Shown: piece after piece, positions 1 to 62,705 of the stretch
How the letters are laid out: the number at the start of each line of letters is the position of its first letter
Position numbering within the stretch: position 1 is the stretch's first letter
Virus record (IMG/VR): IMGVR_UViG_3300044788_000047
Coordinates: 1 to 62,705 of that record
Length of the DNA stretch: 62,705 nucleotides
Direction: 5' to 3' (one strand)
Source of the DNA: a virus
Taxonomy: Duplodnaviria; Caudoviricetes
Notes under the pieces: model-generated
Told to the model about the DNA's origin: nothing
Seen by the model: only the letters and a program-made list of their open reading frames with translations
The model's database searches: none
Translations under genes and position numbers: made by a program

Positions 1-144
1 ATCTCACGCGCCCACGTATCGAAATCCGTAGACCCGGCCTCGTAGACCGTCCCGCCGTAGTCCACCAAATCGTCAATGATGTCATCGGCCTCGTCCGCGC
101 CGATTGCCAGCGTCTCGATCGGCTTGTTGAGCTTGGCCTGCAAC
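1..144. repeat. Terminal overlap, left copy
   Basis: Identical to 62562-62705 except position 18 (A) vs 62579 (G), a synonymous GAT/GAC Asp codon on the minus strand. Confidence 0.97.
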
Positions 145-3902: not shown

Positions 3903-5233
3903 TAGGGACTCGTGGACAGTAACCCCGCAGCGCGATCCGCTTCGGCCTGGGTCATGGTGCCGTTCGCGACGTTGTGGTCGAGGATCTGCTTGATGCGCTG
4001 CGGGCGTGTCATGGTCTTGGGCGGACTCTCCCGCATCGCCTTCTGGACCGCCGAGACCGCCTCATTGACGGTGACTTGCCGAACCGTCGCCCCTTTCGCG
4101 CCGCTGCCAATCTTGTCGAGTTCATCCGAATCCGCCGCAATCTGCTGGCGGGCGATCTCCTTGTCCTTCGGGAGCGCATTCGCCGACGTGAGGATCGACC
4201 GATTCTGGGCAATCCGCTTCGAGAGGACCGTCGCGCGCTCTTTGCCCTCTTTGCTCCCTCCTGCCGCCCCTGCCGCGCTCGGAGCCTTCCCCGGCACCGT
4301 CGCTTTGGTTTTGCGGGCCTCTTCGCCAGCGACCCGCTTCTGTTCCAGCAGGAACGGCTCATCGGCCGTCTTCTTGGCGGTCTCCATTGCACCGGCCTGC
4401 CGCACCTTTTCGTCGTCCTTCACGGACTGGGGCTTGAGCGCGTTCATCTTCGGCAGGAACCCGGGATGGAGACCCTCCTCTGCGCGCGACCACGCCTGCG
4501 ACGCAGAGAGGCTGGGATTGGCGACGCGCAACTGCGTGTACTTCTCGATGGCGGAGTACACCGCGTCCGGCTGGTTCTGCTTGACGTCCTCCAGCGTGTG
4601 CTTGTTGAGATCCTTCATCAGCGGGTGACTCGCTCCGATGGGGAACGCCTTGTAGATGGCGGCGATGCCATCGAGGCTCATCCGCGTCCGCTCTTCCGGG
4701 CTCTTCGCGGTCGCGGCATTCCTGATGGTATCTTGGTAGACGCCCAGCGCCCCGCCCAACTGCTTCGCGGTTTCGGAATCGTCGAGCAGGAGCTTGTAGT
4801 CTCGTAGCGCCTCCTTGACGTGGACAGGATTGCCGAGTTTCATCGCGAGGTTCACCAAGTCGAGCTGGAAGTCCTTGGGGTCGGCGTACCCGCCGGCATC
4901 TGGCTTCTTCTTCATGCGTTCCGCTATCGTGGCACCGAACGCGCGGGCGTCGTCCTGCCGCGTGATCTTCTGCCCCGCCTCCTTGAGCGCCAGCGCGTGC
5001 GTATCGCTGCTGATAGCCTGCTCCCGCAACTGCCCGGGAAGGAGTTGCTCCGCCATGTTGAGGCGCTGCTGGCTCCGCTGGCCTTCCTCGTCGCCTTGGC
5101 GCACTCGCGCAGTCGTCCCGTAGGCCTTGAGTCCCTCGTCCACCGCCCCCGAGATACCCTCGCCGAGCCGCTTCGCTGGCCCTTCGGCGACCTGCTCGTA
5201 GCCTTGAAGTCCTGCCAAGAGTCCCGCAGCCAT
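3902..5233 (-). CDS. Putative internal virion (DNA ejection) protein
   Basis: 443 aa, helical, Ala/Gln/Lys-rich; sits between the pilot-like gene and the giant protein as in podovirus ejection modules. Confidence 0.6.
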   Translation of the reverse strand: MAAGLLAGLQGYEQVAEGPAKRLGEGISGAVDEGLKAYGTTARVRQGDEEGQRSQQRLNMAEQLLPGQLREQAISSDTHALALKEAGQKITRQDDARAFGATIAERMKKKPDAGGYADPKDFQLDLVNLAMKLGNPVHVKEALRDYKLLLDDSETAKQLGGALGVYQDTIRNAATAKSPEERTRMSLDGIAAIYKAFPIGASHPLMKDLNKHTLEDVKQNQPDAVYSAIEKYTQLRVANPSLSASQAWSRAEEGLHPGFLPKMNALKPQSVKDDEKVRQAGAMETAKKTADEPFLLEQKRVAGEEARKTKATVPGKAPSAAGAAGGSKEGKERATVLSKRIAQNRSILTSANALPKDKEIARQQIAADSDELDKIGSGAKGATVRQVTVNEAVSAVQKAMRESPPKTMTRPQRIKQILDHNVANGTMTQAEADRAAGLLSTSP

Positions 5234-6146: not shown

Positions 6147-7382
6147 CTAGTCCGGCCACTGAATATCCCACCCGCTCAGGGCCACCGCGTCGATCGAATA
6201 CGTCGGGGAGACGGCGTAGAAAATCGTGGACCGGGGATCTCCCCGCGTGGGCACCCGCATGGGCGCGCCGCTCTGGCCCGATTGTTCTTGATAGAACGCC
6301 GCGACCTTGGTCACCGTCGGCACGCCACTCCACGATTGCCAGTGAAATCCTGCCGTCGCGCCTCCCGCCACGAGGACGTTGATTTCCACGGCACTCACGG
6401 CGACCGTCGGCACATAGGCGCTCAAGTCGAGGGCCGTGGCGTTCGTCAGAACCGAGCTGGTGATGACCTGGGGCGGCGTGGCGAAACTAAATGAGCTATC
6501 AAACTGGACGCCCTTCAAAAAATGCGCGGTGGCATCCGTCCCGAAACCGCCCACGAGGCGCCGCTTCGTGTAGCCGATCGGCATCGTGGGGTTGGTCCCG
6601 GAGGTCGAGAGGAGACCCGAGAAGGTGTTGGAGGGCGGCCTGAGGATGACGTAGAGATAGTAAAACGTGTTGGCGGCCAGCGTCCCGCTGTCCAGCGCAT
6701 CGGCGCCGGTGGTCGTGGCGTCTACCGTCGTCGTGAAGGGCGACTTGATGAAGCCGGCCACGCTGATCCGATCGGCCGAGAGGTTGATTTTCGTGTTGGG
6801 CGTGCCGGGATTGTTGAGGGCGATGAACTTGATGGTCACGGCACTGCCGTAGGAACTCGACGGTCCCGTGAGCGTGTTGACGATCCCGGCATGGTCCCGG
6901 TACGCGAGCACGGTGTTACCGGCGCCATCGTCTTTCGCATAGAGCGATAGGGTATTGAGCGCCGGCGGCGGCGGCGGGTCGGCGATCTCGGTGTAACTCG
7001 TGTAGGTCGCTCCCCAGTGCTTCGAGACGTCGCGTGCCAGCGAGTTGTCGATCACTTCATACCAGTAGCTCTTTCCGACGATCGCCTTGAGTTGAAAGCG
7101 GAGCCGCTCAAGTTCTCCCTGCACCGTGCTCGCCTGGGAGGCCGAGGTGCCCGGAAACGGATCGACCGTCACCCGCATCTGGCTCACAGAGGAGGAATCC
7201 CCTGTGACACAGGAGGCGATGTTCGAGGTCACCGTCCGCGTGAAGGCGCTGTTGAGGTCCGTGGATGTCAGGATCTCGTTGAGGGCCCAGGTCTTGAAGA
7301 CGCCGCACTGCGCTGCGGCAGGAGCGGGCAGTCCCCACCAGAGCGCAAGCACGGACACTGCCACTAGCATTCGTAGGCTCAT
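6147..7382 (-). CDS. Tail fibre/spike-like protein with N-terminal signal peptide
   Basis: Start at 7382 (GAGGAG RBS). MSLRMLVAVSVLALWWGLPAPAAA|Q; anchor-like segment QM..TVDP...GELERLRF....IVGKSYWY; fibre-type DALDSGTLAANTFYYLYVI...PTMPIGYTKRRLVG. Confidence 0.7.
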   Translation of the reverse strand: MSLRMLVAVSVLALWWGLPAPAAAQCGVFKTWALNEILTSTDLNSAFTRTVTSNIASCVTGDSSSVSQMRVTVDPFPGTSASQASTVQGELERLRFQLKAIVGKSYWYEVIDNSLARDVSKHWGATYTSYTEIADPPPPPALNTLSLYAKDDGAGNTVLAYRDHAGIVNTLTGPSSSYGSAVTIKFIALNNPGTPNTKINLSADRISVAGFIKSPFTTTVDATTTGADALDSGTLAANTFYYLYVILRPPSNTFSGLLSTSGTNPTMPIGYTKRRLVGGFGTDATAHFLKGVQFDSSFSFATPPQVITSSVLTNATALDLSAYVPTVAVSAVEINVLVAGGATAGFHWQSWSGVPTVTKVAAFYQEQSGQSGAPMRVPTRGDPRSTIFYAVSPTYSIDAVALSGWDIQWPD

Positions 7383-7392
7383 GGGTCTCTCC

Positions 7393-7779
7393 TCATTTCT
7401 TGTTGCCAAAACTATACCCCCCGAGACTAAACGCCGTCTGTAATTGTGAAATCCGGAAGTATGGGAACGGAGTCTCGCCGAACGTTATCGGCTCACACGC
7501 GCTCTCCGCCGACGCGACGAGGTCGGGATCGCCGCTCGTGAAGATGGCCCGATAGGCTTTCGGGGCGACGTCGGTGATCAGGCGCTCGCTCGAGAGGACG
7601 ACCGCGCTGGTCCCGCCCGCTGGGACGGGCACGGTTTCCTCGGTGAAGTCACCGCTACAGTCGCCGGTCTCGTAGAACCGGAAGGTGATGGTACTTCCGT
7701 CCGGAATGACTCCACCAATGACGGCAACCACAGCCTGGTCGAGGATGACTACCGGGACGAAGACGAAGGGCGTCGTCAT
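7393..7779 (-). CDS. Ig-like (bacterial Big-type) virion accessory protein
   Basis: D.A.V...P.G.ITF.FY...C.G...Y.A.F..GD......S.CEP pattern with a Cys pair. Confidence 0.6.
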   Translation of the reverse strand: MTTPFVFVPVVILDQAVVAVIGGVIPDGSTITFRFYETGDCSGDFTEETVPVPAGGTSAVVLSSERLITDVAPKAYRAIFTSGDPDLVASAESACEPITFGETPFPYFRISQLQTAFSLGGYSFGNKK

Positions 7780-9365
7780 CAGACAACCGACCAGGTTCCC
7801 GCTAGCCAGACACTCGTCGAGAACGCAACGGTGACTGTGCCGGACGCGAATTTCCCTCCCTGATGGGGCCCCACCAGCACGTCCGTAATCACCATCACGC
7901 CGCCACCGGCATGGATTTCCCGGCCGATGTCTGTGGTGTCGAACGCCCCGACTAACACCTGAGTGCCTGGGACAGTGGTCTGCACGAACGCATCACCAGT
8001 CGAGACTGGGTGCGGGGCCCCGAAGTCAAAGTAGAGGTCGGCCAGCCGGAACTCCTCCGGCAGCGGGCCCGGTGGAGGCGGAGGCGGCGGGGGTGGCGGA
8101 GGCGGCGGGGGTGGCGGGGGCGGCGGGGGTGGCGGCGGAGGCGGCGGCGGTGGAGGTGGAGGCGGTGGAGGTGGAGGTGGAGGTGGAGGTGGAGGTGTAG
8201 GTGTAGTAGGAGGAGGCGGCGGCGGCGGAGGCTGTGGTGGCGCAGTCGGCGACGCCGACAGGAGGATCGTCGTCGTCACGCTGGCGACCCCTGCCGGCGG
8301 TGTGATCGCGGTTTCCTTGTTCAGGATGGGCGACGTCGGTGAGAGCGACGCGACGTCCTGGACGATGAGATTCGCAAAGACATGATAAGCAGGAAACTCG
8401 GCCCAACTCCCGCCCGACCGCTCGATATAGGCAAAGTTGTCCCCGCCATCGGCGCCAGCCAAGACCCCCGAAATGGTGCCATAGGCCCGAAGCGAGGTTC
8501 CGGCCCCACTCAGGCCGATGTAGTACGGTGTGCCATTGACAACTTCGAGGGGATCGAAGTAGACAGTCATCGGCGTGACGCCGCCCGACGAGCGCACAGC
8601 CGCCAAGAGCGTAGCCGATCGCAGGGCCACGCCGGCAGCGTTGTAGATCCCGATGACGGTATCTACGGTGACGTCGCAATCGAGGCGGACCCCGCTGATC
8701 TTCATGTCCCACGGCGGAATAAACTTGGCGCCGACCAAGTCCGCGCCACCCGACGGCAGGGAGATGATGGCGGAGCTCGACGCGAGACACCCCCAGGGCA
8801 CGAGCCATTCGTCGTCCTCAACATAATGCAGCGCCAGAAGCGGGACTGTTTCCCCTGTGCCCCCGGTCGAGTTCCAACCAAGCGCATCTGGATCAGTGAC
8901 GCTATAGGGAAACCCCCACGATCCCGCTGGTCCGAGAAAGTACCGCGATCCAGTACTCGGCGATCCCCCGCCAAGACTGGCGACGGTCACACAACACGCA
9001 AGCAACTGGCCGCGCGTCACGGCAAGGCCAGAGTTCATATTTGCTGCTATCCATCCATTTGTGGGTAGTGCTGAAGACGGAATAGGCGCCCCGTGGTCGC
9101 CAGTGCCAATCACACCGGAACCTGTCGGCAGTCCATCCGCGCCAACCGTTTCAAGGCTCCACGTCACACCGAACACGCCTTGGACGATGTACGACTGATA
9201 GGCGTAGGCGTTGATCGTGCCCGTCTTGGGTGCGGCGATGACATAGCCGAATCGGGTGCCGACCACGGAGGCACCATCTAGCCAGTGGTAGAAGTTCTCG
9301 ATGGCCGGGGTGATGGCAAACTTGAAGTTCCACGGCCACGGCCAGTAGGCGACGGGGAGGGACAT
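7779..9365 (-). CDS. Virion accessory/receptor-binding-like protein: tandem beta-sandwich domains, polyproline stalk, C-terminal beta domain
   Basis: 528 aa; N-terminal ~340 aa paralogous to 9366-10358; 42 consecutive Pro; C-terminal domain paralogous to 45589-46119. Confidence 0.65.
   Translation of the reverse strand: MSLPVAYWPWPWNFKFAITPAIENFYHWLDGASVVGTRFGYVIAAPKTGTINAYAYQSYIVQGVFGVTWSLETVGADGLPTGSGVIGTGDHGAPIPSSALPTNGWIAANMNSGLAVTRGQLLACCVTVASLGGGSPSTGSRYFLGPAGSWGFPYSVTDPDALGWNSTGGTGETVPLLALHYVEDDEWLVPWGCLASSSAIISLPSGGADLVGAKFIPPWDMKISGVRLDCDVTVDTVIGIYNAAGVALRSATLLAAVRSSGGVTPMTVYFDPLEVVNGTPYYIGLSGAGTSLRAYGTISGVLAGADGGDNFAYIERSGGSWAEFPAYHVFANLIVQDVASLSPTSPILNKETAITPPAGVASVTTTILLSASPTAPPQPPPPPPPPTTPTPPPPPPPPPPPPPPPPPPPPPPPPPPPPPPPPPPPPPPPPPPGPLPEEFRLADLYFDFGAPHPVSTGDAFVQTTVPGTQVLVGAFDTTDIGREIHAGGGVMVITDVLVGPHQGGKFASGTVTVAFSTSVWLAGTWSVV
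8070..8195 (-). repeat. (CCN)42 polyproline tract
   Basis: 126 nt of mixed CCG/CCA/CCT/CCC codons, preceded by PPQPPPPPPPPTTPT. Confidence 0.95.
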
Positions 9366-15639: not shown

Positions 15640-16833
15640 CTAACTCTCCTGTGAGGCCGCGTGCAAGCGGCCCGCGGCGAACAGCGCCACGATCGCCTGC
15701 TGCGGCATGTGAAACGTCGGACTCCCCAACGAGTTGACGGCCGCGACGATCGCGACGCCGACCCACATCAGATCCCTGTCCTGTCCGGTCCCCATCAGCA
15801 CCCAGGCGCCTCGGCTGAGACGCCAGACCCACCAGCCGACCAGCGCCACGCCGACCAGGCCGAACTCAAACCAGAGCTGGAGCGGCTCGTTGTGGGCCTG
15901 CATGGTGACGGGGGACCCGATCGCGCCGGCCTTCTGAGCCTGCTCATTGACCACGATCGACCAGAGCCTCCACGAGCCGGGCCCGTTCCCGACCACCCAA
16001 TGCTGCCGCAGATCCGGCCAGGCGTTCGCCCACACGGCCGTCCGGCCAGACGTGGCCGTCGAGAGCAGGGTGTCGCCGTGACTGTCCGGCCGCTGGATAT
16101 GCTGCACGCTCACCGCGACGATCAGCACCACGAGCGCCGCGCCCATGACGGGCCGCCACGATGAGGGCAGATCGCGCCAGGACATCAGCGCCAATCCGGC
16201 CGCGCCGGAGACCACGGGGCCGATGTTGCCGGTCGCGACGGTGCCGGCGACCACCAGTAGCGCCCACCAGCGACCACCGAGCGCGTAGACGACCGGCACG
16301 CCGAGCGCCAGGTAGGCGCCCCAGAAGTTCGGATGCGTGAGCCAGCCCATCGGCTTCCCGACGAATGCCTTGAGCAGTGTCGGCGTGCCTTGCGACGTCG
16401 TGACCCCGAGCCAGCGCAAGGGGTCGCCGAGGACATTCGGGCTCGGGTAGAACTCGAAGAGATTCATACCGCCGAGGATGCCTTGAATCGCCACGCCAAC
16501 CACGAGTGCCCAGGCGCAGCGGGTCGCCGCCACTTCCGACAGGGCCGCCGCTTCGACATAGAGCAGCGCCGCCATCACGAGGACGAACAACACCTGGAAC
16601 CCACGGATGGGGACGCCCGCCCACAGCACATGCGCCAGGGTCCATCCCAGAAAGAGGGCGACCGGCCAACTCGCCCGGCCGACCCACCGAAGCAGCAGCA
16701 GGCCGGCCGCCACCAGCATGTACGCGATGATGGCGCCGCGCTCGGGCACGAGCGCGAGGTTGAAGGGCAGCGGGAGGGCGAGGCTCCCGAGGAGCCCCAC
16801 CCAGACCGCCGGCCAGAGCGGGCGCGGTGTCAT
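15640..16833 (-). CDS. O-antigen ligase / O-oligosaccharyltransferase-like (Wzy_C family) polytopic membrane protein
   Basis: About 11-12 hydrophobic segments; G.L.HPNF.GAYL; SGR..VW..AW......W..GNGPGSW; QAHNEPLQLWFEFGLVG with the conserved Arg and His of the periplasmic loop. Confidence 0.85.
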   Translation of the reverse strand: MTPRPLWPAVWVGLLGSLALPLPFNLALVPERGAIIAYMLVAAGLLLLRWVGRASWPVALFLGWTLAHVLWAGVPIRGFQVLFVLVMAALLYVEAAALSEVAATRCAWALVVGVAIQGILGGMNLFEFYPSPNVLGDPLRWLGVTTSQGTPTLLKAFVGKPMGWLTHPNFWGAYLALGVPVVYALGGRWWALLVVAGTVATGNIGPVVSGAAGLALMSWRDLPSSWRPVMGAALVVLIVAVSVQHIQRPDSHGDTLLSTATSGRTAVWANAWPDLRQHWVVGNGPGSWRLWSIVVNEQAQKAGAIGSPVTMQAHNEPLQLWFEFGLVGVALVGWWVWRLSRGAWVLMGTGQDRDLMWVGVAIVAAVNSLGSPTFHMPQQAIVALFAAGRLHAASQES

Positions 16834-30147: not shown

Positions 30148-30303
30148 TCACCGCTTCTTCTTCACGCGCTCCGGCAGGCCCTTGTGCTTCGTCGAGGCGA
30201 AGTCCCGCGCGACGGCTGGCGCCGGGCATTTCCCGTCGGCGTGCTTCGGGTCGTGCGCGCACATCCCCATGAACCGCTGCTGCGCCTTAGACTTTGCTGG
30301 CAT
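30148..30303 (-). CDS. DUF3008-like small basic protein (51 aa)
   Basis: Manual translation MPAKSKAQQRFMG...FASTKHKGLPERVKKKR; below the ORF-track cut-off. Confidence 0.65.
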   Translation of the reverse strand: MPAKSKAQQRFMGMCAHDPKHADGKCPAPAVARDFASTKHKGLPERVKKKR

Positions 30304-30730
30304 CGTTCAGCCTCCGTTTCCCGTACTCCGTGACCTCGTAGAGAATGCTCGGCCGGCCGCCACCCGGGCCGACGGGTTTGACGCGCGTGGCGATCCGGAT
30401 GAGCGCCGGGTGGTGGGGCGCGTGGTACAGCAACCAGTAGCGGGCCTGCGTGAAGGCGGTGATGCCGACGTGACCGAGGACAATCTGCAATGCGTTCACG
30501 GTGAACCGCGAGGGCAGAAGCGCGAGGGCCTCGAGGAGGAGCGCGTCGGTGACGCGGCGGGCGGTCATCCCGTCCCTCCCTGCGCGGCGGCGCTCATTTC
30601 ACGACACGTAGGGCACGGGCAAGCCTTGATCGTTGGACGCTTCTTGCGCGTGAGCCACAATTCGTGGTGGCAATCGAGTTCGAGGCACCACCGATTCGGA
30701 TTCAGTGGAGACTGGTCTATACGTACAACC

Positions 30731-30892
30731 TTAGCCATTGCTCCCTCCCTGCGCGGCGGCGCGGACTTCATTCTGCTCTCGAATGTCAAGCAGGGCTTCG
30801 AGGATCGCGTCAAGTCGATCCATTAGCGGAACAACGCTGCGCTCATCGGCGCGGCTTCATAGGTCACGTCGAATGGTGTCACGGCTTCTCAT
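30731..30892 (-). pseudogene. Small cassette gene interrupted by an in-frame TGA
   Basis: MRSRDTIRRDL*SRADERSVVPLMDRLDAILEALLDIREQNEVRAAAQGGSNG; TGA at 30857-30859; bounded by junction repeats. Confidence 0.5.
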
Positions 30893-31120
30893 GTTTTCCC
30901 TCCCTGCGCGGGCAGATTACGAACGTAGCGATCATAAATAAACTCCGCTGTCGCCCGTTTCATCCGCTCGCTCGTGGATTTCTCAATCCAGTCGATGGCT
31001 CCCTTTAGCGCCTTGACGTCTGGATCGAGTCGGGCGTGCTTGCGGCAGCGTCCCGGAGAACAATGCTTACCACTGTGTCTTTTCATTGCGCCCCTCCCTG
31101 CGCGGAAGCACTAATAAGAG

Positions 31121-31264
31121 TCACGACCACGACCGCGACCGCGACCACGACCGCGACCGCGACCCCGACCGCGACCCCGACCCCGACCACGACCCCGACC
31201 CCGACCGCGACCCCGACCCCGACCGCGACCAGACCCTCCAGCGTTGCTTCAAGGCGCGGCGCAT
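31121..31264 (-). CDS. 47-aa Ser-Arg/Gly/Trp dipeptide-repeat peptide
   Basis: MRRALKQRWRVW(S-R/G/W)17S; ATG 1 nt after the upstream stop; DNA is (TCG-NGG)n. Confidence 0.7.
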   Translation of the reverse strand: MRRALKQRWRVWSRSGSGSRSGSGSWSGSGSRSGSRSRSWSRSRSWS

Positions 31265-31265
31265 C

Positions 31266-31523
31266 TTACTTCACTCGGCCGAAGCTCTCGATACATGCCT
31301 GCATGATGTACAGTTCGTGCGGGAGCGGTTGGGCGTCCTTCCACTTCGGATCGGTAAACGCCCCGGTTTCATAGACGATCGCCGGGTCGGCTAGGAGCAC
31401 GCAATCCGCATTCACGCCGGTCAACGTGCCCGTGTAGATATAGTTCAAGCAGAAGAGGGTGATACGCTCTCCGAGGAGCTTCATCAGACCTTCGCCGCTC
31501 ACGTCCTCGACCAGCTTCTTCAT
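31266..31523 (-). CDS. Sm/LSm-fold-like small protein
   Basis: Helix then LLGERITLF...YIYTGTLTGVN..CVLL.D..IV...LYI....IESF; AGGAG RBS. Confidence 0.55.
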   Translation of the reverse strand: MKKLVEDVSGEGLMKLLGERITLFCLNYIYTGTLTGVNADCVLLADPAIVYETGAFTDPKWKDAQPLPHELYIMQACIESFGRVK

Positions 31524-32307
31524 GCTGTCTCTCCTGTGGTGGATGCTATACCCCCCTGCGTGGCGGCGCGGGCGCGCGGATCATGAATAAGACACGAGAA
31601 TGAGCATGGATGTTTCCCCTTGTGGCACGTCCCAGCGCACGGGCAGTACAGTTTCATTCCGTCCCTCCTTGCGCGGCGGCGCGGGCGCTCTTGGCTAAAT
31701 CTTTATTGGCTTGTTCTGTCAGCGCGCTGAACAAGCCGTGATATTCACACGCCTTTACGAGCGCGATCAGATCGGTCTCGATACGTTTGGCTCTCGACCG
31801 GCGATCGTTGTTCAAAAAAACATCCGCGCCAGCACGGGTAGCCTCCGCAAGAGTTGTCATCTTCCCGCGGCGGCGCGGGCCTCAAGTGTTTGGATTACAA
31901 ATTGACCGTTGTACATTTTCCTTCCGTTGAACAACGCCGCCGCCGCCGTCCACGTCTCCTGTTCACGTACCTTGAGACGTTCAGCCAGGTTATTGATGGA
32001 CGCGCAAGCGAGCTTTTCTTGACCCTTGAGCCGCTCGATCTCCCGCGCCTGCTCCAGCTCGGTAAGGGTAAGGGCAATCCATACTTCAAGTGATGTCAAT
32101 GTCGATGTAGCCATGATCGTCCTCGCCTTCTCTAGCATCGCGGGTGTTAGCGTCGTCATGGGCACACACACGCGAATGGGGTGCCGTAACACCCCCAACG
32201 TCCATTGGGCAGCGTGACGATCCATCCGACGACGTGTCCACATTCACATATGAGAAATGGGCTTACCCGTACATGAGGTTTCGTCGCCACCGCCTCGGGC
32301 GTCGGGG

Positions 32308-32559
32308 TCATCGCCCGCCCTCCTCCACCGCGTCGGCTTCGCAATCGTCGAGCTTCAGGTTGATCTGGTGCCCGAGCCTCGCGGCCATCGCGAGCGCCGT
32401 GCGAAGATTCCCTCGCCAGTTGATCCGGATCTTCTCGAGCCCGGCCTCCGGCACCCACGGCGAGTGCCCCGCAAAGAGCGCCGTCTCGTAGCGCGCGAAG
32501 AGTTCCTCGAGCAACTCTCCGGTCGGAATCAACTCGTGCGGCCTCGTGGTGGTCTCCAT
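32308..32559 (-). CDS. Hypothetical protein (83 aa), possibly leaderless
   Basis: ATG 7 nt below a candidate -10 box. Confidence 0.5.
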   Translation of the reverse strand: METTTRPHELIPTGELLEELFARYETALFAGHSPWVPEAGLEKIRINWRGNLRTALAMAARLGHQINLKLDDCEADAVEEGGR

Positions 32560-32566
32560 GCCCGAG

Positions 32567-32596
32567 AGGATATGATATTGTTTCGGTACCTGTCAA
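32567..32596 (-). promoter_or_regulatory. Sigma70-type promoter candidate
   Basis: TTGACA-N18-TATCCT. Confidence 0.5.
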
Positions 32597-32774
32597 GCTG
32601 TATTTTCGGGGGACTAACGAAGAACATGAACCCAATCGGCCCAACACCAAGAAGCCAGAGATTGAGATAGCGATTGGCGTAGGGCCATGCCCACGGCCTC
32701 CAGAACAGACGAAGCGGACCTAGGTCAAGCACGACCACCTCCGCCACTCGGTCACATGGTAGCCTCCCTTGGTC

Positions 32775-32788
32775 GTTCCACGTGGAAC
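32775..32788. promoter_or_regulatory. parS-type palindrome (ParB loading site)
   Basis: Perfect 14-bp palindrome GTTCCACGTGGAAC, matching the core of the chromosomal parS consensus TGTTNCACGTGAAACA; in a gene-poor region. Confidence 0.75.
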
Positions 32789-32804
32789 CCTAGTCATGGG
32801 CCAG

Positions 32805-32833
32805 AGGATGGCTGAGAATTGAAAAGCTGTCAA
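32805..32833 (-). promoter_or_regulatory. Sigma70-type promoter candidate reading into parS
   Basis: TTGACA-N17-CATCCT. Confidence 0.55.
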
Positions 32834-33213
32834 GAATTTTCGGACTTGGGAATCGGGAGCGATGTGCGACGAGAGGAACCAATTTGCCGAGGCCAGCAAT
32901 ATGCTACGCAGTGCGTTAGGAGTTGAGAATGGGGATGGGACAGACGGAAACGGGGATCTCTCTCCCCGTGGGGCCGGGCGTGGGTGACGGGGGGCCCCGG
33001 GTCGCCGTTTTGTGGGCCTGCGGGTGCGCCTGGGCGTGGTGTGTGGGGCAGGGGTAGAGGTCGAGGTGGAACCTCGGCGGCCGGCTGGAGGCCTGAGCTG
33101 CCTGCGAGCTCGGCGTCATGATGGCATTAGGGCATCAGGTTCGCCAGTTTCCATTTTCTCCGGGCGGTGCGTCATCGTATATACGTCAGCATTTACACAT
33201 AGATACGTGGATT

Positions 33214-33241
33214 AGGTCTGATAATGGACATTATGTCAACC
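33214..33241 (+). other. dif-like XerC/XerD recombination site
   Basis: AGGTCTGATAA-TGGACA-TTATGTCAACC: 11-6-11 layout with inner ATAA/TTAT symmetry (E. coli dif is GGTGCGCATAA-TGTATA-TTATGTTAAAT); in the AT-rich non-coding region. Confidence 0.8.
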
Positions 33242-33447
33242 ACCGTCCTGGCGTCATGATGCTAGTCTTTACAGGCACTTAGTTTATCTGGGGCATTTGT
33301 GCCCCACTCTTGGCGGTTAGAGGCGGAGCTGATCTGAGAGTGGGTGCCCGTACTCCTTATCTTATCCTTACTACTTCTACTACTACTACGTCACCAGTGT
33401 GTAGATATGTCCTGTATATCCTCTCCACATACTCTCCATACCATATC

Positions 33448-33460
33448 AATCAATCCTTTA
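33448..33460 (+). promoter_or_regulatory. IHF-like site near dif
   Basis: AATCAATCCTTTA fits WATCAANNNNTTR; two TTTWCAGGCACTT repeats nearby (~33268, ~33461). Confidence 0.35.
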
Positions 33461-33574
33461 TTTTCAGGCACTTTACCTACTTATAAACATGGCGACCAGA
33501 ACAGTCGGCGCTGAAAGTTGCTGAAAGGCATTGGCTATGTACGTTTTCGAGATAAAACCTCGTAATTGGCTGGT

Positions 33575-34093
33575 TCACTTCTGACCAGAAAGAGATCGTA
33601 GTATGAGCATCCCACGCTCAAGTCGTCGGTACAGCGTGGCACGATCAACACGCAGGAGGTCGGCAATGGTCTCCGCTGAGTCGAAGAGGCCGGAGGCACG
33701 GAGAGCAAGCGGGAGGCGCAAGCGAGGGTCTGGGAGCACCCGATGAATGGCGAGGTGGTTGGGGTAGGCGACTGGCAGGGGAGCTGGGGCGATGAGCTTA
33801 GCAGCGCGGCGCAGGACCGTGTAGGGGTCTTGGGTGAGGGCAGGCAGGGCGTAGGCGACGGTCCTATGCTGCTCGCGTGATCGACAGAGCAGGACAACCA
33901 CAGCGCGGGTCAGGGGATTCAGGCAGGCTATCAGCGGGTCGGTGGACGGGTATTCTAGCGGGTGGTGCGCGCGTTCGTCACGGAAGATGTCGAGGGGCAC
34001 GCGGCTGACGGGCTCGGGCTCGCGGTGGGTGGATCCGATGAGCTGGGCGAGCTCGCGGCGCCGACCGAGGTCGAAGGCCTGGACGCGGGTCAC
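33575..34093 (-). CDS. Putative transcription regulator with C-terminal sigma-region-4-like HTH (candidate late activator)
   Basis: C-terminal ETIADLLRVDRATLYRRLERGMLILR. Confidence 0.55.
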   Translation of the reverse strand: MTRVQAFDLGRRRELAQLIGSTHREPEPVSRVPLDIFRDERAHHPLEYPSTDPLIACLNPLTRAVVVLLCRSREQHRTVAYALPALTQDPYTVLRRAAKLIAPAPLPVAYPNHLAIHRVLPDPRLRLPLALRASGLFDSAETIADLLRVDRATLYRRLERGMLILRSLSGQK

Positions 34094-34338
34094 GGCATCG
34101 GCTCGGGGCCTTTCAGGGGAGGCGGCATCTGGGGCAGGCCGAGCGCGCGGGCGATCCAGAGCTGGTGGCAGTCGGGATGAAAGACCGCGGGGCCTTGGAC
34201 CGTGAAAGGGTGGGTCAGCTCCACCTTATCTCCGCACGCGGCGCAGACCCAGAGGATGTGGCGGTGGGTCGTCGGTCGTATCGCGCGCGAGCCGTTTTGG
34301 CCGCGGGTGCAGGCGTCCATCATCGGAAAGGCGTCCAC
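34090..34338 (-). CDS. Small Cys/His zinc-finger-like protein
   Basis: CAAC...FHPDC; overlaps the next gene's start; directly below a promoter candidate. Confidence 0.5.
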   Translation of the reverse strand: MDAFPMMDACTRGQNGSRAIRPTTHRHILWVCAACGDKVELTHPFTVQGPAVFHPDCHQLWIARALGLPQMPPPLKGPEPMP

Positions 34339-34346
34339 GAGGCAGG

Positions 34347-34376
34347 AACGTAGCCGAACTGGGGCGCGGCTGTCAA
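34347..34376 (-). promoter_or_regulatory. Sigma70-type leftward promoter candidate
   Basis: TTGACA-N18-TACGTT at the point where the strands diverge. Confidence 0.55.
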
Positions 34377-34508
34377 GATATAATAGGTTTCGGGCAGGGC
34401 GAGCCGCCCGTGTAAAACTTCCATTAGTTTCGGGCAGAATGGGGGAGTGCCTAAAGAATACGCATTCGTGAATCCTTTAGTTTTATCGGGTTATGATTTA
34501 GATTGACG

Positions 34509-34523
34509 TGGCACGGGCCTTGC
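34509..34523 (+). promoter_or_regulatory. Sigma54 (-24/-12) promoter candidate heading the early genes
   Basis: TGGCACGGGCCTTGC = TGGCAC-N5-TTGC; GTTTCGGGCAG direct repeats upstream at 34387 and 34427. Confidence 0.7.
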
Positions 34524-34608
34524 GTGTATGTGTAGCATGATGAGGCCGCAGGACACCACAGGAACCCGCACCCAGGAGACCAACGACTCGAGGGAGGGAG
34601 AAAACGAC

Positions 34609-34968
34609 ATGGACTCAAACGAGGTTTGTACTGACTGCGGCGCAGGCGGCATCCTAATCAGCCCAGCGGGGCAGTGCCATCAGTGCGAGCAGGATCAACG
34701 TGAGCTGGACGCAGAGGACGGGGAGAGGAACGACATGAACAGCAGATACCGGCTCGTAGCGGCCGACGACATGAGCGTATCGGAGGAAATCACCAGCGTC
34801 TTTGACGCCCGTCTGATTGCTCAGGCCCCCGCCATGCGGGAGGCGCTCAACGGTTTCCTTGAGTGGTACAAGGGACTTGAAAGTCCCGGCCTTGCGCCTC
34901 ATTCGCTGGAACTGACTGCGCGGCTTCGTGAGGCCCGCGCCGTCCTGCGGGCCTGTGAGGAGACCTAG
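34609..34968 (+). CDS. Early hypothetical protein (CxxC/CxxC + ARLIAQAP motif)
   Basis: GGGAG RBS; ARLIAQAPAMREAL shared with 37097-37410. Confidence 0.6.
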   Translation: MDSNEVCTDCGAGGILISPAGQCHQCEQDQRELDAEDGERNDMNSRYRLVAADDMSVSEEITSVFDARLIAQAPAMREALNGFLEWYKGLESPGLAPHSLELTARLREARAVLRACEET

Positions 34969-35393
34969 CCATGCCGGCCGTATACTGCCCCGTGAAGGGT
35001 CATGAAAAGATCCGCCTCCGTTGTCACGCGACTCGCCGCGGGCTGGTATCAGACGATCTTTGCCACGGTGCCCGATGCACGGGCCAAGGGCGCGGAGTTT
35101 GCCCACTGCCTGAACGGCATCGGTGGCTCGCCGGTTCACGTGGTGGACATGGAGCCGGTCAATGCCTAACCTCGTGAAGGTTGCCGTAATTCGGATGCCC
35201 GGCTATCCCATCGGTCAGCCCGCGCCGTGCTACCTCAACTGTCCTTGTGGCGCCAAGCCGAAGCGGGGCGGACTGGCTGAGTACGTCCCCTGCGTGTGCG
35301 GGGCCGTGTACTCGTTCAACGGCTACCTTGTCAACTCATGGCCGATAGCAGGCCGCAGGGTGCAGTGAACCTATCACGGGAGAGAGGGACGAC

Positions 35394-35633
35394 ATGAACG
35401 CTAACGCAAAGCTGAAAACCGAGACGAACACCCAGAGTATGGAGCGGCGCATCTTGAAGGCCGCTGGCGAGCGGCTAGGGCATCGCCGCGACCTGTCGGC
35501 AGACTTCGAGCATGGACAGTGGTGGATCACCAACCGGCGCACAGGCGCGCAGTGGTCCGTGGTCGATGCCGAGGGCGGTCCCAGCGTAGACGGCTTCGAC
35601 TTCGAGCAGGTCACGCAAGGCGACGAGGACTAA
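35394..35633 (+). CDS. Early hypothetical protein
   Basis: 79 aa, purine-rich RBS. Confidence 0.6.
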   Translation: MNANAKLKTETNTQSMERRILKAAGERLGHRRDLSADFEHGQWWITNRRTGAQWSVVDAEGGPSVDGFDFEQVTQGDED

Positions 35634-35673
35634 CCCCCGAGCAGTGAACCCATCGACAGAGGGAGAGGACACC

Positions 35674-36396
35674 ATGACCTACAGGGAACGCAAAGAAGCC
35701 CGGCTAGAGAAGCGTCTCGACTGGGCGGCGGGGCGGCGCGAGAAGGCGGCGAGCCTCCGCGCCACCACCGACCGCTACCGCGGGGATGTGGCCTTCAACA
35801 CCCAGCCGGGGCATATCCCGGAGCGGGCGCGGATCATTCAGGCCACGGACAAGGCCGCAGAGCATCAGGGCATGGCCGCGGAGCATGAGAGCAAGGCCGC
35901 CGAGATCAGTCGGCAGCTTGACCGGAGCATCTACGACGACGACCCAGACGCCATCAGCCAGATTGAGGCGCGGATCACCAAGCACGAGGCGCAGCGGGCG
36001 CGCATGGTCCTGGTCAACAAGCTCTACAAGAAAGGGAACGCAGAAGGGCTCACAGCACTGGGACTCGACCTGGACAGGATCAAGGCCAAGCTCGCGGCGG
36101 CCGGCGGGTATTGGGGTAAGGCGCCCCATCTGCCCTACGAAATGAGCAACCTATCGGGGCGCATCGGCGCCGACCGGAAGCGCCTGGAAGCGATCAAGGC
36201 GCGCCAGGAGCGGGCCGCCCGGGCTGAGACAAGCGAGACGGGCGTGCTGATCGAAGGGGAGGCATGGGTGCGCGTGACCTTTGCCGAGAAGCCGGAGCGG
36301 AGCATCATCGAGGCACTCAAGGCGGCGGGGTTCTCGTGGGGCGCAGGGCACTGGATCGGCGAGCGGGCCAAGCTGCCCGCAGAGGTGACAGCATGA
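35674..36396 (+). CDS. DUF3560-like protein
   Basis: Y.ERKEAR...QPGH..ERAR...A.......SI..DDPDA...IE.RI...YE.SN....I...RKRL...V.F.EKP......LK..GF.W. Confidence 0.75.
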   Translation: MTYRERKEARLEKRLDWAAGRREKAASLRATTDRYRGDVAFNTQPGHIPERARIIQATDKAAEHQGMAAEHESKAAEISRQLDRSIYDDDPDAISQIEARITKHEAQRARMVLVNKLYKKGNAEGLTALGLDLDRIKAKLAAAGGYWGKAPHLPYEMSNLSGRIGADRKRLEAIKARQERAARAETSETGVLIEGEAWVRVTFAEKPERSIIEALKAAGFSWGAGHWIGERAKLPAEVTA

Positions 36397-36911: not shown

Positions 36912-37406
36912 CCATGCGCCGCCTGACTCCCCCATCCTGGTATCACGACGGCCGCGGCCCGAGCCTGACGTGTGAGTTGTGCCCGCGGAGCCCTCTGGAG
37001 TCCCCTGCGCCAATCTCTCAGACGCGGTGTCCAGCCTGTCACCTCCTGATCGAGGCCCACGAGTTGCTGCCCTGCCAGGGAGAAAGGATCAATACATGAG
37101 CCAGCACACACCGGAGTGTGAAAATAGCGGGCTCTTCCTCGTGTGTACTTGTGAAAAAACCATGAGCCAGCCCTGGGTCGTTTTGGGAGCCGGGCATCAT
37201 AAGGCCGTGTGCTGCATGAAAAACACTCACAACGAAGAAGAAGCCGCTGCAAACGCCCGCCTGATCGCCCAAGCTCCGGCGATGCGGGAGGCGCTGGACA
37301 ATGCGCTGACGTGGTGGCACTCGATCCCGCAGCACTTCAACGCTGCTCAAGAGCCGAAGTGGATAGCAGCGACCCGCGCCATCCTGGCCGCTACGCCGGA
37401 AACGCC

Positions 37407-37613
37407 ATGACGAACCCCGGCCGGTTCTACCAGCAGCGTGCGGCCTACGAGCGCGCGATGATCCAGGCCGCCATCTGCGAGCACAGGACGCACACCGCCG
37501 CGGCCAAGGGCCTCGGGCTCAACCGGACGTACATGCTGCGCCTGATGAGGAAGCTCGGCTTGAGCAAGCAGCATTCGCCCGTCCGGGTTTCCGAACGCAA
37601 GGCCGTGCGATGA
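37407..37613 (+). CDS. Stand-alone Fis-type HTH protein
   Basis: YERAMIQAAI......TAAAKGLGLNRTYMLRLMRKLGL, like the C-terminal domain of sigma54 activators. Confidence 0.75.
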   Translation: MTNPGRFYQQRAAYERAMIQAAICEHRTHTAAAKGLGLNRTYMLRLMRKLGLSKQHSPVRVSERKAVR

Positions 37614-60200: not shown

Positions 60201-62705
60201 GGCACCGTTGCCAACCGCGACTCGAACCACGGGTAGAAGGTCGGCGCGACCTGGCGGGCCAGCGCGGGATCGGTGGCGTAGAGCCGTGCGAACTCGGCGA
60301 ACCCTTCCGACAACTTCGGTCCCTTCACCCCTTGCACCTGCGTCAGCGCGTCCATTTCTGCGGCGAACGGCTGGAGCTCCTGATTACTGATCTGGAGTCC
60401 GGTCATCACGCCGCGGACCATGCTCGTGCCCTGCAAACCGTGGCCGAACTCGTGGGCGAAGGTGTCCACGTCCGTCCCCTTGCGGGCGCGAATGTTGCCC
60501 GAGAGCTTGTGCCGCCAGCCGAGGACCCCCTTGCCGACGACGTGACCCTGGATGGCGAGGGCGCCAGACTTGGCCATGCGGAGCGCCTCGGCCATCGCCT
60601 GAATCATCTGGTCCTTCCGGGGAGTGTCCGCGGCCTTCGTGCCGAACATACGCCGCACTTGGCTCTGGGGTGGCGCTGGGCGCGTCGGCGTTCTCGCCCC
60701 GCCGACGGCCATGCCTTCTCGCTCGGGCACCACCTCTTGCTCTGGCGTCACCTCGAGCGGCTCTTCGACGCCCATCTGTTCCTCGCCGGTGCCCCCGATG
60801 AAGTCGCCCTCACCAATCCCCTGCGTGCCCACATCGAGCGCCGGGACGTCTCCGGAGACGACCGCGTTGAGCATTTTCATCTTCCGAGCGATGATCCCCA
60901 TGTTCCAACTGTCGATGTTCGTGTCGGCGTACAAGACGTGGATTCTGGGGTAGCTCTTGGTGGTCATGCGCCACACCCGGCCGATCGCCTGCACCATATC
61001 GACGGCCGAAAAGGGCGACGTCACGATCACCATGTCGCGCGGGGCGTTGCCCACGACGTCATCGAGGTTGATACCCGTGCCACCCTTCTCCACGGTGGCC
61101 AGGACCACGCGCGTCTTCCCGGCCTGGAAGTCGTCCATGCTCCCCGTGGTGCCCGAGGCGCCACCGTGGATCTCCGAAATGTCCGTGATGCCCTCGCGCG
61201 CGAGGGCCTCCCGCATGAGCTTGACCGTCCCATCGCTCTGGTGGACGACGTCCCGCTCTTCCCCGACCACGTTGCCGAAGGCGTCGCGCACGACGCGCTT
61301 GATGGCGACCTCAGAGTAGTTGACCCTCGCCATGAAGACGACGACCTTGCGATTCTCCGCGAGCGAGGCTTTGATGGCGGCAATGGTCTGCTCTACCTTG
61401 AAGGTTTCGAGGGCCCGCCGTTGGTGCTGGAGCATCGAGGCCCGCCGAATCCCGACGAGGCGGTCCCCGTATTCGTTGATGTACGCTGTCTCGATCTTGT
61501 TCTGCACCATCATCGCCCCAGGCGAGGGCGGGATGGCGGTGAACAGGACCGTGACGCCATCGAGGGCGATCTCGCGCTTGATCATTCGGCCCTGGCGCGT
61601 GAGCTCGGTAAACTCCTTCTCCATGTTTTCGAGGACCTTCTGGAGGCCAAGCGCGGGGTTGGCCTCCCAGATCATCACCGCGCCCTTGGGGGTCCGCTGC
61701 TTTCTCTGGATCAGGCCCATGCGCTTGAAGACGTCGGCCGCCGAGACCTTGCCGAAGAGACCGGATTCCACCATGTAGTGCACGTGATGCGCCATGTCGG
61801 CCGGGGTCGCCGAGAAGAAGAGATTGCCGCCGGAGGCGCGGATCATGCGGAGGCCGGTCTTCGAGGTCTCGCTCGAGATGTTCTTGAGCTTGTGGGCTTC
61901 GTCCCAGATCATCACCGTGTTGTCGTCCACGGGGAGGTTCTGGAAGCGGTGGTAGCTCGTGACATAGGTCACGGCGCCAGCTTCGACGGGCCCGGAGGTC
62001 CACGGCTTGAGAACCACACCCATCGCGTCCGCGTCTTTCTTGTACGACCCGCTGAACGCCCACTGATCCTTGAGCTTGCGGAGCTGGAGAACCTGTTGCG
62101 GTGAGACAATCACGACCTTGTGGCCCCGGTCGGCCAGGATCTTCGCGGCGGCGATCTGCTCTCGCGTCTTCCCGACGCCGGTCATGTCGGCGTTGGCGAA
62201 GGCACCGACCTCCTCGAGCGCCTTGAGAGACGCCGCGACCCCTTGGCGCTGCGCCGGCGTCAGATGTTGAGCAAGGCTCTGAGGTATGACGGACTCATCG
62301 ACCGTGGGGGTGACGTCGTCCCGGGCGGTGATGATCCGGCGAGTTCGCTCATCGCCAGGGCGCTCAGGGTGTCGCTCGACGGGGCCTGCTCCGGGTCCGG
62401 GGGGAGCTGGTCCGGCTTGACCGGCCACGCCTGCGGGTCCTGCTGGGGCTTCTGGAACAGCTCCTTGAGCGGCTTGGCCACGGCTCGCCTCCATGCGGGC
62501 GCGAATCCCCTCGAAAGCCGGGCGGAGGTACTCTTCGACCCCTTCGCCCAGTGTGCTACGGATCTCACGCGCCCACGTGTCGAAATCCGTAGACCCGGCC
62601 TCGTAGACCGTCCCGCCGTAGTCCACCAAATCGTCAATGATGTCATCGGCCTCGTCCGCGCCGATTGCCAGCGTCTCGATCGGCTTGTTGAGCTTGGCCT
62701 GCAAC
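57281..62705 (-). CDS. Giant polyvalent protein, C-terminal part: Strawberry-notch/SNF2-like SF2 helicase, zincin-like (HExxH) peptidase, LPD38-like domain
   Basis: ADMTGVGKT (Walker A), DEAH, SATP, GGTGINL, QAIGRVWR; AHEFGH...EGFAEF; C-terminal IDFDLHG...FMNPAFQG...NKDFYFNRDI. Confidence 0.88.
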   Translation of the reverse strand, partial: LQAKLNKPIETLAIGADEADDIIDDLVDYGGTVYEAGSTDFDTWAREIRSTLGEGVEEYLRPAFEGIRARMEASRGQAAQGAVPEAPAGPAGVAGQAGPAPPGPGAGPVERHPERPGDERTRRIITARDDVTPTVDESVIPQSLAQHLTPAQRQGVAASLKALEEVGAFANADMTGVGKTREQIAAAKILADRGHKVVIVSPQQVLQLRKLKDQWAFSGSYKKDADAMGVVLKPWTSGPVEAGAVTYVTSYHRFQNLPVDDNTVMIWDEAHKLKNISSETSKTGLRMIRASGGNLFFSATPADMAHHVHYMVESGLFGKVSAADVFKRMGLIQRKQRTPKGAVMIWEANPALGLQKVLENMEKEFTELTRQGRMIKREIALDGVTVLFTAIPPSPGAMMVQNKIETAYINEYGDRLVGIRRASMLQHQRRALETFKVEQTIAAIKASLAENRKVVVFMARVNYSEVAIKRVVRDAFGNVVGEERDVVHQSDGTVKLMREALAREGITDISEIHGGASGTTGSMDDFQAGKTRVVLATVEKGGTGINLDDVVGNAPRDMVIVTSPFSAVDMVQAIGRVWRMTTKSYPRIHVLYADTNIDSWNMGIIARKMKMLNAVVSGDVPALDVGTQGIGEGDFIGGTGEEQMGVEEPLEVTPEQEVVPEREGMAVGGARTPTRPAPPQSQVRRMFGTKAADTPRKDQMIQAMAEALRMAKSGALAIQGHVVGKGVLGWRHKLSGNIRARKGTDVDTFAHEFGHGLQGTSMVRGVMTGLQISNQELQPFAAEMDALTQVQGVKGPKLSEGFAEFARLYATDPALARQVAPTFYPWFESRLATVPDLEQAFNAFRDQILALRASTPEERIGRMIATREKRPLIERAKQAASIGELQRQGQEHIFQFVNRWLPFQQMVQLVDPEGTKLAADQDPNKLGRTMGGSIYNAHAALMGDPDHPSVPQGRLDPTTDEPIPGTKSFFQILKPVGNRINDFRTYAMARVMESRAMSDRPIYQQQAEHLRKLGDLSSVDVADVIARLEATHPDFNGVMDEWQGFNDAFLEWVGSSDLKGPQEIAAIKDAIELYVPLGRLMDNPGDPQAVGALGTKVGLGKGFHRTRGTSERIVLDPLELYQSNLLAIISAVKRNEVLARTLDLTENKALATGKFLGMQLEKVATPMKATTVQLASFRRELEDAFRDAGISLDILDQLDLNRLATIFRPSRDNLPANEMVVYRRGTPHVVQILNPMLMRSIGALTGKDMPMMAENTAWATMAFNTFLRGPARMLRRGVVLSPSFMPAHMAREQQEAMAAGWGPIPPFFRGILESDKTYRRFLAGGGRIFSYRNVSPEALARNIQDLKDGAWYQGKLRRDVRHWAEKILRVWDETTRVGVAGLAIEKARPVDVLAGRRSVNIEAGYQAREAGIDFDLHGANQQFRRYMQAVTFMNPAFQGMYRNARMFREMYRNPAGRIGRGMLYIGGLTMFAEILGYLLNKDDPRYQALTDEQRNMNFYLIPPGLRIASDEWETLSLEDQERRSNEMFSMPKAYGLGWVFATAPRQILEWANGSEPALFQRLAKSFWQASRVEALPTVVRVIGEIATNKDFYFNRDINKTWQRNLPPPMQGRPGGPAGAVELSKAFQSVPGLNKLTPNDIEHIFRGLAGYYGQYALSATDRILALTKGDPAAPEMRLAEYPGVNRFLARFPPTFSKPQEEFYDFYKQVTGAMQALRGLPESQQESFRAAHEFELQESGVVAGHAAQLKNQRRTLDRIRTDTTMDAATKANARERVLLESFNESRRVMQEIRRDRVAYDESRQLEYAR
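62562..62705. repeat. Terminal overlap, right copy
   Basis: Matches 1-144 with one mismatch; lies inside a coding region. Confidence 0.97.

Follow-up and report, generated by a model that had tools for sequence, protein, structure and literature searches.

A dif-like site in a tailed actinophage genome with no recognisable recombinase gene, and its possible use as attP by host XerC/XerD

The closest described systems to the locus reported here are the IMEXs, which as far as the available text of a 2025 survey goes comprise the inoviruses and the dif-type double-jelly-roll phages, the tailed phages that appear there being integrase-encoding (PMC12715192). The accessible parts of two sources describe CTXphi, VGJphi and TLCphi of Vibrio, together with the dif-type double-jelly-roll vibriophages, as carrying a dif-like attP, encoding no recombinase and being integrated by the host XerC/XerD (PMC12715192, PMC3025954). 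The FtsK-independent routes of IMEXs are XafT (TLC), a folded single-stranded DNA attP (CTX), and a centre mismatch on the XerD side (VGJ), and these features define IMEX subtypes, not the IMEXs as a whole. Among tailed podoviruses, the available text on phage JC1 describes a serine recombinase (gp1) with an attP 41 bp upstream of its gene and integration in rimO (PMC9144972). Tailed temperate phages are in general assumed to bear an integrase or to be plasmid-like, and prophage finders and lifestyle predictors rest on that assumption. The plasmid sites cer and psi function together with accessory proteins and some 180 bp of accessory sequence. In the tailed phage P1, one recombination site serves the Cre/loxP system both in circularisation and in dimer resolution of the plasmid prophage, and P1 has its own recombinase and a partition system.

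The window, i.e. the whole stretch of 62,705 nt that was analysed, is a viral record in IMG/VR. A sequence-only reading of it had pointed to a 28-mer with an 11-6-11 layout as a dif-like XerCD site in a tailed, podovirus-like phage, and we found this 28-mer (AGGTCTGATAA-TGGACA-TTATGTCAACC) by sequence search of the window at 33214-33241 on the + strand, with arms and centre as described (Table 1). The 28 bp are arranged as 11-6-11 with the inner inverted repeat ATAA-N6-TTAT, which is the layout of dif, and contain GATAA-TGGACA-TTATG. There is one copy only in the window, even at up to 3 mismatches, and no match in 100 shuffles; the number of copies of the inner 20-mer expected in the window by chance, from base composition, is 4e-9.

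Table 1. Positions of the dif-like element, its surroundings and the genome ends in the window
Feature	Position	Strand	Remark
XerC-type arm AGGTCTGATAA	33214..33224	+	outer 6 bases variable among genuine dif, inner GATAA fixed
6-bp central region TGGACA	33225..33230	+	same as dif centre of candidate hosts
XerD-type arm TTATGTCAACC	33231..33241	+	identical in Kribbella MAG L049, Dactylosporangium L015 and Micromonosporaceae MAG L046
Sigma-70-like promoter match	33230..33257	-	-35 ATGACG 33257-33252, -10 CATAAT 33235-33230; consensus match only
AT-rich intergenic region, GC 0.456	33120..33574		between head of leftward late/packaging operon and gene P0001
GGCGTCATGATG, 12-nt exact direct repeat, copy 1	33112..33123	+	pair brackets the dif-like site
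GGCGTCATGATG, 12-nt exact direct repeat, copy 2	33250..33261	+	9 nt past XerD-type arm
TTTACAGGCACTT, 13-nt repeat, copy 1	33268..33280	+	repeat search
TTTTCAGGCACTT, 13-nt repeat, copy 2	33461..33473	+	repeat search
P0001, 172 aa, all-helical, C-terminal helix-turn-helix	33575..34093	-	gene adjoining the dif-like site
P0002, 82 aa, possible zinc ribbon	34090..34338	-	all matches below cut-offs; heads short leftward unit
DarB-like giant, N-terminal 1300 aa	3..3902	-	ddrB-ParB domain at residues 766-896; runs off window start
DarB-like giant, C-terminal 1807 aa	57284..62704	-	helicase domains and LPD38; enters from window end
Terminal overlap	1..144 = 62562-62705		143/144 positions equal; closes to a 62,561-bp unit

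The inner 20 bases, GATAATGGACATTATGTCAA, recur without a mismatch in 87 genome records, at one stretch apiece, and no record among the 87 has the 20-mer twice. Every taxon-bearing title among these records is that of a member of the Actinomycetota; among the 80 titles listed, 21 are Kribbella or Kribbellaceae and 14 Nonomuraea, and Dactylosporangium, Actinoallomurus, Nocardioides and many metagenome-assembled genomes (MAGs) are also present. The 20-mer lies at 48-51% of the record length in five of the seven complete chromosomes listed and at 55% and 97% in the other two, the percentages being counted from the start of each record, whatever start that record uses. With a single copy at such a position, the site is therefore the genuine dif in these five chromosomes. 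The best match to the full 28-mer is the dif of a Kribbella MAG, with 2 differences (26/28), followed by five more genomes with 3 differences (two Kribbella, a Kribbellaceae MAG, an Actinomycetota MAG and a Dactylosporangium). The dif-like reading was thus borne out by this search of the 28-mer against host dif sites, in which the 20-nt core is identical to the dif of the 87 Actinomycetota records, and the site, also offered as a host identifier, points to Kribbella-like Actinomycetota.

The phage site differs from the genuine sites at 2-7 positions (mean 5.2), and genuine sites differ from one another at 0-8 (mean 4.1). At all eight outer positions the phage base is also found among the genuine sites; for the outer 6 positions of the XerC arm, its frequency at the same position in the 87 genuine sites is 0.11-0.77. 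The likeness to the genome loci ends at the borders of the 28-mer and the flanks are unrelated to host flanks, so what the phage carries is a copy of the site and not a captured block of host DNA. Judged by these comparisons, the 28-mer is a real dif look-alike rather than a chance palindrome, and it is probably an XerCD substrate of some kind. Other dif sites of Actinomycetota have the centres TGCACA and TGTACA. In the accessible part of the source, the Frankia alni dif proposed for actinobacteria has the same arms and a different centre (Kono 2011, PMC3025954). A 17-base pattern with a free centre (GATAATNNNCATTATGTCAA) was found in 4 of 401 genomes sampled across the phylum, and therefore marks a subset of the Actinomycetota, not the phylum.

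All five genomes with the best-matching dif have a gene that matches the XerD profile TIGR02225 at 321-343 bits, in four of the five over the curated cut-off, and in each of these candidate hosts a second Xer-like gene matches the same profile at 258-270 bits. The available text of a study of mycobacteria describes dif-flanked cassettes that are excised at high frequency by the XerCD of the cell (10.1101/758037), and therefore actinobacterial XerCD does use copies of dif at ectopic positions. A third tyrosine recombinase gene is present in Kribbella genome G002 (C1:4376686-4377516), 0.5-0.7 kb from dif, and no second dif-like site was found within 80 kb of that dif. Three isolate-derived provirus records (G403-G405, gene at 73-603) likewise have a tyrosine recombinase gene 0.5-0.7 kb from a dif-like site. 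There may be self-encoded dif-targeting enzymes, or a dif-linked Xer paralogue, in Actinomycetota.

The IMG/VR record is labelled linear and about 80% complete. The first and last 144 nt of the window are the same apart from position 18 (A vs G), a mismatch that points to the presence of two variants in the sample. The window begins and ends within one gene for a DarB-like giant polyvalent protein of about 3060 aa, which the contig ends cut in two and whose nearest full-length relatives have 3130 and 3209 aa. The two parts have about 45 residues in common (the end of the N part and the start of the C part) and are colinear on the 3130-aa relative P0005, residues 750-1298 of the N part on 826-1374 and the C part from its residue 1 on 1330 onwards. 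Because a 144-nt overlap joins two ends inside one colinear gene, the genome, as read from its ends, is closed and complete at 62,561 bp, and the label of linear and 80% complete is wrong.

No candidate recombinase was found in six frames of the window at E<=1 with PF00589, PF00239 and PF07508; these tyrosine recombinase, resolvase and large-serine-recombinase profiles match in 14, 13 and 6, respectively, of 14 control genomes. Pfam and PHROGs scans of 74+105+41+1 ORFs gave no integrase, excisionase or transposase. The earlier remark that no tyrosine or serine recombinase is recognisable is upheld by both kinds of scan, and now applies to a closed genome. The window also has no tRNA gene or other usual attP landmark, and neither the XafT-type domain DUF3653 nor, in a six-frame search, FtsK/SpoIIIE is matched in it. 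ParB_N has no match, and for ParA there is only an 11.7-bit P-loop match to AAA_31 within the giant helicase. No clear lysogeny repressor was seen in the Pfam and PHROGs scans, the only candidate being a Cro/CI-type helix-turn-helix (HTH) protein of 53 aa.

The structural genes (P22-type portal, major head protein and large terminase in the Pfam/PHROGs scans) and a distant Bcep22-like kinship agree with the description of the phage as tailed and podovirus-like; a tape measure gene was not found by these scans. From about 33.1 kb the late and packaging genes are directed leftward, with uncertain gene calls at 30.5-33 kb, and the early genes occupy 34.5-47.1 kb in the rightward direction. The early genes include those for the Cro/CI-type HTH protein, endonuclease VII, a Cas4-type exonuclease and a replication-initiator-like protein (phrog_16167, E 4e-6). 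Most of the 74+ ORFs are without family assignment, among them products of 1017, 655, 531 (first call), 525, 443, 421 and 415 aa. Amid the structural module, 15643-16833 (-) encodes a Wzy_C (O-antigen ligase family) membrane protein (E 2e-12), which is also found in the relative L002 (73% identity). A tail-region protein (6150-7409, -) gave a match, just under the cut-off, to domain 2 of Mtd, which is the receptor-binding protein of Bordetella phage BPP-1; a reverse transcriptase gene was not seen. Two early genes, 34528-34965 (+) and 36979-37407 (+), both match phrog_1273 via their C-terminal 60 or so residues, so that a small domain may have been duplicated within the early operon.

The dif-like site had been said to lie in the most AT-rich region, and nowhere in the window is GC indeed lower than around it: the value is 0.456 over 33120-33575 vs about 0.64 for the whole window, and the five lowest-GC windows of 300 nt all begin within 33151-33351. 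The same region may be the largest non-coding one, gene calls at 30.5-33 kb being uncertain. A sigma-70-like match reads leftward into the late operon, its -10 falling inside the XerD-type arm; promoter-like sites number 2 in 2 kb vs a shuffle mean of 0.8. The two TTTWCAGGCACTT repeats noticed beside the site exist (13-nt copies in Table 1), and 2 of 100 shuffles yield at least 3 matches at up to 2 mismatches. A related inverted copy of the 13-nt repeat occurs at 34446-34466 in the divergent early promoter region, and for this reason the repeats are better read as a phage regulatory motif than as accessory sites for Xer. A motif around CAGGCACT/TAGGCACT and the word AATCCTTTAKTTT recur, partly inverted, at 33452-33473 and 34446-34483; this is likely a binding motif of a phage regulator. 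The IHF-like box did not hold up: one match to WATCAANNNNTTR, which we take to be the IHF consensus, was found at 33448-33460, and at least one match arises in 27 of 100 shuffles, i.e. it is not significant. To our knowledge, Actinomycetota have no IHF of the enterobacterial kind.

The gene next to the site, P0001, belongs with P0002 to a short leftward unit (P0002 to P0001) that extends from the divergent early promoter region to the dif-like site. P0001 matches HTH families in Pfam weakly (E 0.04-0.12), has one homologue among metagenome contigs (61% identity, on a contig of 1081 nt), and gave structural matches in the atlas at TM 0.34-0.48; its AF2 model (pLDDT 50) was too poor for a fold search. 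A resemblance to ECF sigma factors is a weak lead from the atlas matches. P0001 was also considered as a recombinase, XafT or excisionase and rejected, its Pfam matches being to HTH families only, with no DUF3653.

Contigs of four sediment runs bridge the unbroken site with 0 differences; X1 is the possible source of the record, and X2-X4 represent three further studies, all of them 2025 sediment metagenomes and perhaps of one campaign. Such agreement between separate studies shows that the join did not arise as a chimera in assembly. Among the joints and loose ends listed for the contigs of the four runs over 30200-36200, none falls at 33214-33241; contigs drop rare variants, so this bears neither for nor against integration. 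At 31004-31204 the summed contig depth is 110-216 in all four runs vs 2-11 alongside, and short contigs and loose ends are numerous there, as if a short G+C-rich repeat were common to other organisms in the samples.

The search for lysogens covered species representatives and contigs. Within that scope it gave no lysogen and no attL/attR junction. Portal searches were negative in 401 genomes sampled from the order of the best-matching host (G001), and so were TerL searches in all 101 genomes of its family. The closest relative and, with TerL as the query, the sole one among viral contigs is L002 (TerL 89% identical), a contig that ends 2.4 kb upstream of TerL, short of the site. In metagenome contigs no relative was found with a TerL alignment and then with TerL alone. 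P0001 gave none in viral contigs, and the N-terminal portion of the giant-protein piece at the right end gave one irrelevant match. The Cas4-like exonuclease found no relative, DUF3560 found four unrelated high-GC loci without a dif-like site, and the 1017-aa protein gave 49 domain-level matches, none of them a relative. In blastn against GenBank phages, 3 kb and 151 nt around the site had no match, and among 72,556 plasmid records there was no relative of the phage, TerL having one partial match at 28.7% identity.

In IMG/VR, the 17-base pattern matches 53 stretches and a reversed control pattern 22, so many of the low-GC matches may be chance. Twenty of the 53 loci have a GC of at least 0.60, at which by a composition estimate the AT-rich pattern is far less likely to arise by chance, and weight is put on these 20 loci and on the actinophage G409 only. 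A tyrosine recombinase was found in 5 of the 45 dif-pattern records searched (seven contigs <6 kb were left out) and in 3 of the 15 with a completeness of 90% or more. Comparison over 2 kb to each side of the site showed none of these records to be related to the window. Five dif-bearing viral records have one site each, and neither at the far end of provirus G442 nor in G409 was a second dif-like site found. The latter is a complete, DTR-bounded siphovirus-type actinophage of 56.4 kb and GC 0.71 with WhiB, a tape measure and a repressor-like HTH protein. Its dif-like site of the actinobacterial type (6867-6894) has an FtsK/SpoIIIE-like gene (2522-4621) on one side and a ParB-like gene (8551-9102) on the other, its 57 ORFs gave no integrase match, and the arrangement looks like an episomal module.

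We propose, as the leading though still tentative reading, that the 28-mer, a mimic of the chromosomal dif of the Kribbella-like actinobacterial hosts of the phage, is used as an attP for reversible insertion at dif; the phage would probably borrow the host XerC/XerD. Host XerC and XerD would bind the phage 28-mer and pair it with the host dif, strand exchange would take place inside the identical TGGACA centre, and the genome would end up at the terminus of replication, with a regenerated dif on one side and an attP-like copy on the other. The same enzymes could reverse the insertion, in which case some hold on excision at every division would be needed: a prophage between two near-perfect, directly repeated dif copies should often be excised by FtsK-activated XerCD, like the dif-flanked cassettes in mycobacteria, and stable lysogeny would need a brake. 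Also against insertion are the want of an integrated copy in the genomes searched, of a clear repressor and of an Xer activator of the XafT type. A chromosome-resolution site is of little use to a lytic phage, and the site therefore argues for a carried state. A lysogeny function is also to be expected, because the distant kin BcepIL02 and JC1 are of temperate type with their own recombinase and attP, yet it is missing here. Somewhat more hesitantly than the use as attP itself, we suggest that the phage could be a tailed-phage IMEX of Actinomycetota, in which integration and excision would be carried out wholly by host XerC/XerD via a dif copy, with no phage recombinase, directionality factor or known Xer activator.

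An episomal use of the site, in which the phage persists, or for some time replicates, as a free circle and host XerCD resolves its multimers (as at cer, psi and pdif) or circularises terminally redundant DNA after injection (as Cre/loxP does in P1) with no insertion, is a less probable account but the most serious rival. A full two-armed dif is typical of plasmids and secondary replicons. The core is matched at 21/22 positions on a 245-kb plasmid of Arthrobacter crystallopoietes (NZ_CP018865.1, 152006-152027) and at 21-22 of 22-24 on six Weissella plasmids (individual matches of 21/22 or 22/24), and these unannotated stretches are likely plasmid Xer sites. The actinophage G409, with its site between FtsK/SpoIIIE-like and ParB-like genes and no integrase match, the unbroken attP form in all four runs, and the replication-initiator-like gene of the phage itself also speak for a free circle. 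On the other hand, a plasmid prophage is judged by its own initiator and active partition, and in this closed genome we found the initiator-like gene only and no partition gene, ParA/ParB or other; with no ParB_N match and only 11.7 bits to AAA_31, a plasmid-type prophage would have no visible segregation system. No relative of the phage turned up among the plasmid records, and we reason that multimer resolution would be of little gain to a lytic phage. Resolution between phage copies needs no host centre, whereas recombination with a host site does, and the centre is host-identical, which favours a reaction between phage and host. We place insertion at dif above the episome because the centre is identical to that of the hosts and the closed genome is without a partition system.

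It is improbable that the site is out of use for recombination, as a relic of a past exchange with the host terminus or as a promoter or operator that merely resembles dif. The -10 of the sigma-70-like match falls in the XerD-type arm, so that match and site overlap, and the site lies among other repeats within the main regulatory intergenic region, as such an origin would have it; but hardly any copy of the 20-mer is expected by chance, and across 750 kb of unrelated viral loci even the closest candidate with the inner palindrome departs from the 28-mer at 11/28 positions. The end of the likeness at the 28-mer borders is against a captured host block, and a relic would decay, yet the phage site is within the natural spread of working dif sites. 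Least probable, and by a wide measure unlikely, is a phage-encoded recombinase of a kind that profiles do not recognise, acting here or at another attP. Room for one exists among the many ORFs without a family, several large proteins included, and the tyrosine recombinase genes close to dif or a dif-like site in Kribbella G002 and proviruses G403-G405 are a precedent of a kind; but profiles that find their targets in the controls gave no candidate here, the usual attP landmarks are missing, and a private enzyme would need no copy of the host's site.

If the use as attP is right, the prophage is expected at the terminus, in tandem arrays and with frequent excision. Since the site stands at the head of the late operon, over a leftward promoter-like element, insertion could then uncouple the late genes from upstream control until excision. 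Taken with the other high-GC dif-bearing viral contigs (40/45 without a tyrosine recombinase), Xer use might then be a general way for tailed phages to lysogenise. Tailed phages that relied on host XerC/XerD would be taken for virulent ones or for fragments, as the label of the present record illustrates. The dif-like site is also a cheap handle on host prediction for uncultured actinophages, the phage lends itself to testing how a large element that has two good copies of dif avoids excision driven by FtsK, and the region could serve as a minimal integration cassette for Actinomycetota. In a literature search with most subscription journals outside its scope, we found no report of a tailed phage with a copy of the host dif and no recombinase. 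The exploitation of Xer, so far described only for filamentous and tailless phages, would probably be extended by this locus to a tailed actinophage.

The phage resembles the IMEXs, as far as these are covered by the available text of the sources cited above, in having a dif-like site and no recombinase of its own. It differs from them in kind and host, the IMEXs being small filamentous or tailless phages of Proteobacteria and the present one a 62.5-kb tailed dsDNA phage of Actinomycetota. It differs also in the site, which is here a full 28-bp, two-armed copy with a host-identical centre and in IMEXs is folded single-stranded DNA, one-armed, or degenerate in the XerD arm. Looking for the FtsK-independent routes of IMEXs in the phage, we found no DUF3653, a dsDNA genome, and a centre equal to that of the host at all 6 bases. 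The RstR-like terminal gene pair of IMEXs is absent.

By portal, the nearest isolates are Lessievirus (Bcep22, BcepIL02, JC1) and the Ralstonia GP4-like podoviruses, at 26-27% identity over 82-84% of the query. With them the phage has in common a genome size near 62 kb, a giant DarB-like gene that follows the structural genes, divergent early promoters and a similar gene order. The C part of the giant protein is 22% identical over 659 aa to gp70, and from such values the kinship to Lessievirus would lie above genus rank at best, being far too distant for a genus. BcepIL02 has gp04, annotated as a tyrosine recombinase, and a cI-like repressor, where the phage has no recognisable recombinase and no clear repressor, and the hosts of these podoviruses are Proteobacteria. 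With plasmid Xer sites (cer, psi, pdif and the dif of secondary replicons) it has in common an XerC/XerD site on an extrachromosomal replicon; in contrast to cer and psi, no accessory sequence or protein of their type is identifiable, and the carrier is a virus without partition genes. Compared with P1, where the recombining enzyme is made by the phage, the enzyme acting at the present site would be that of the host.
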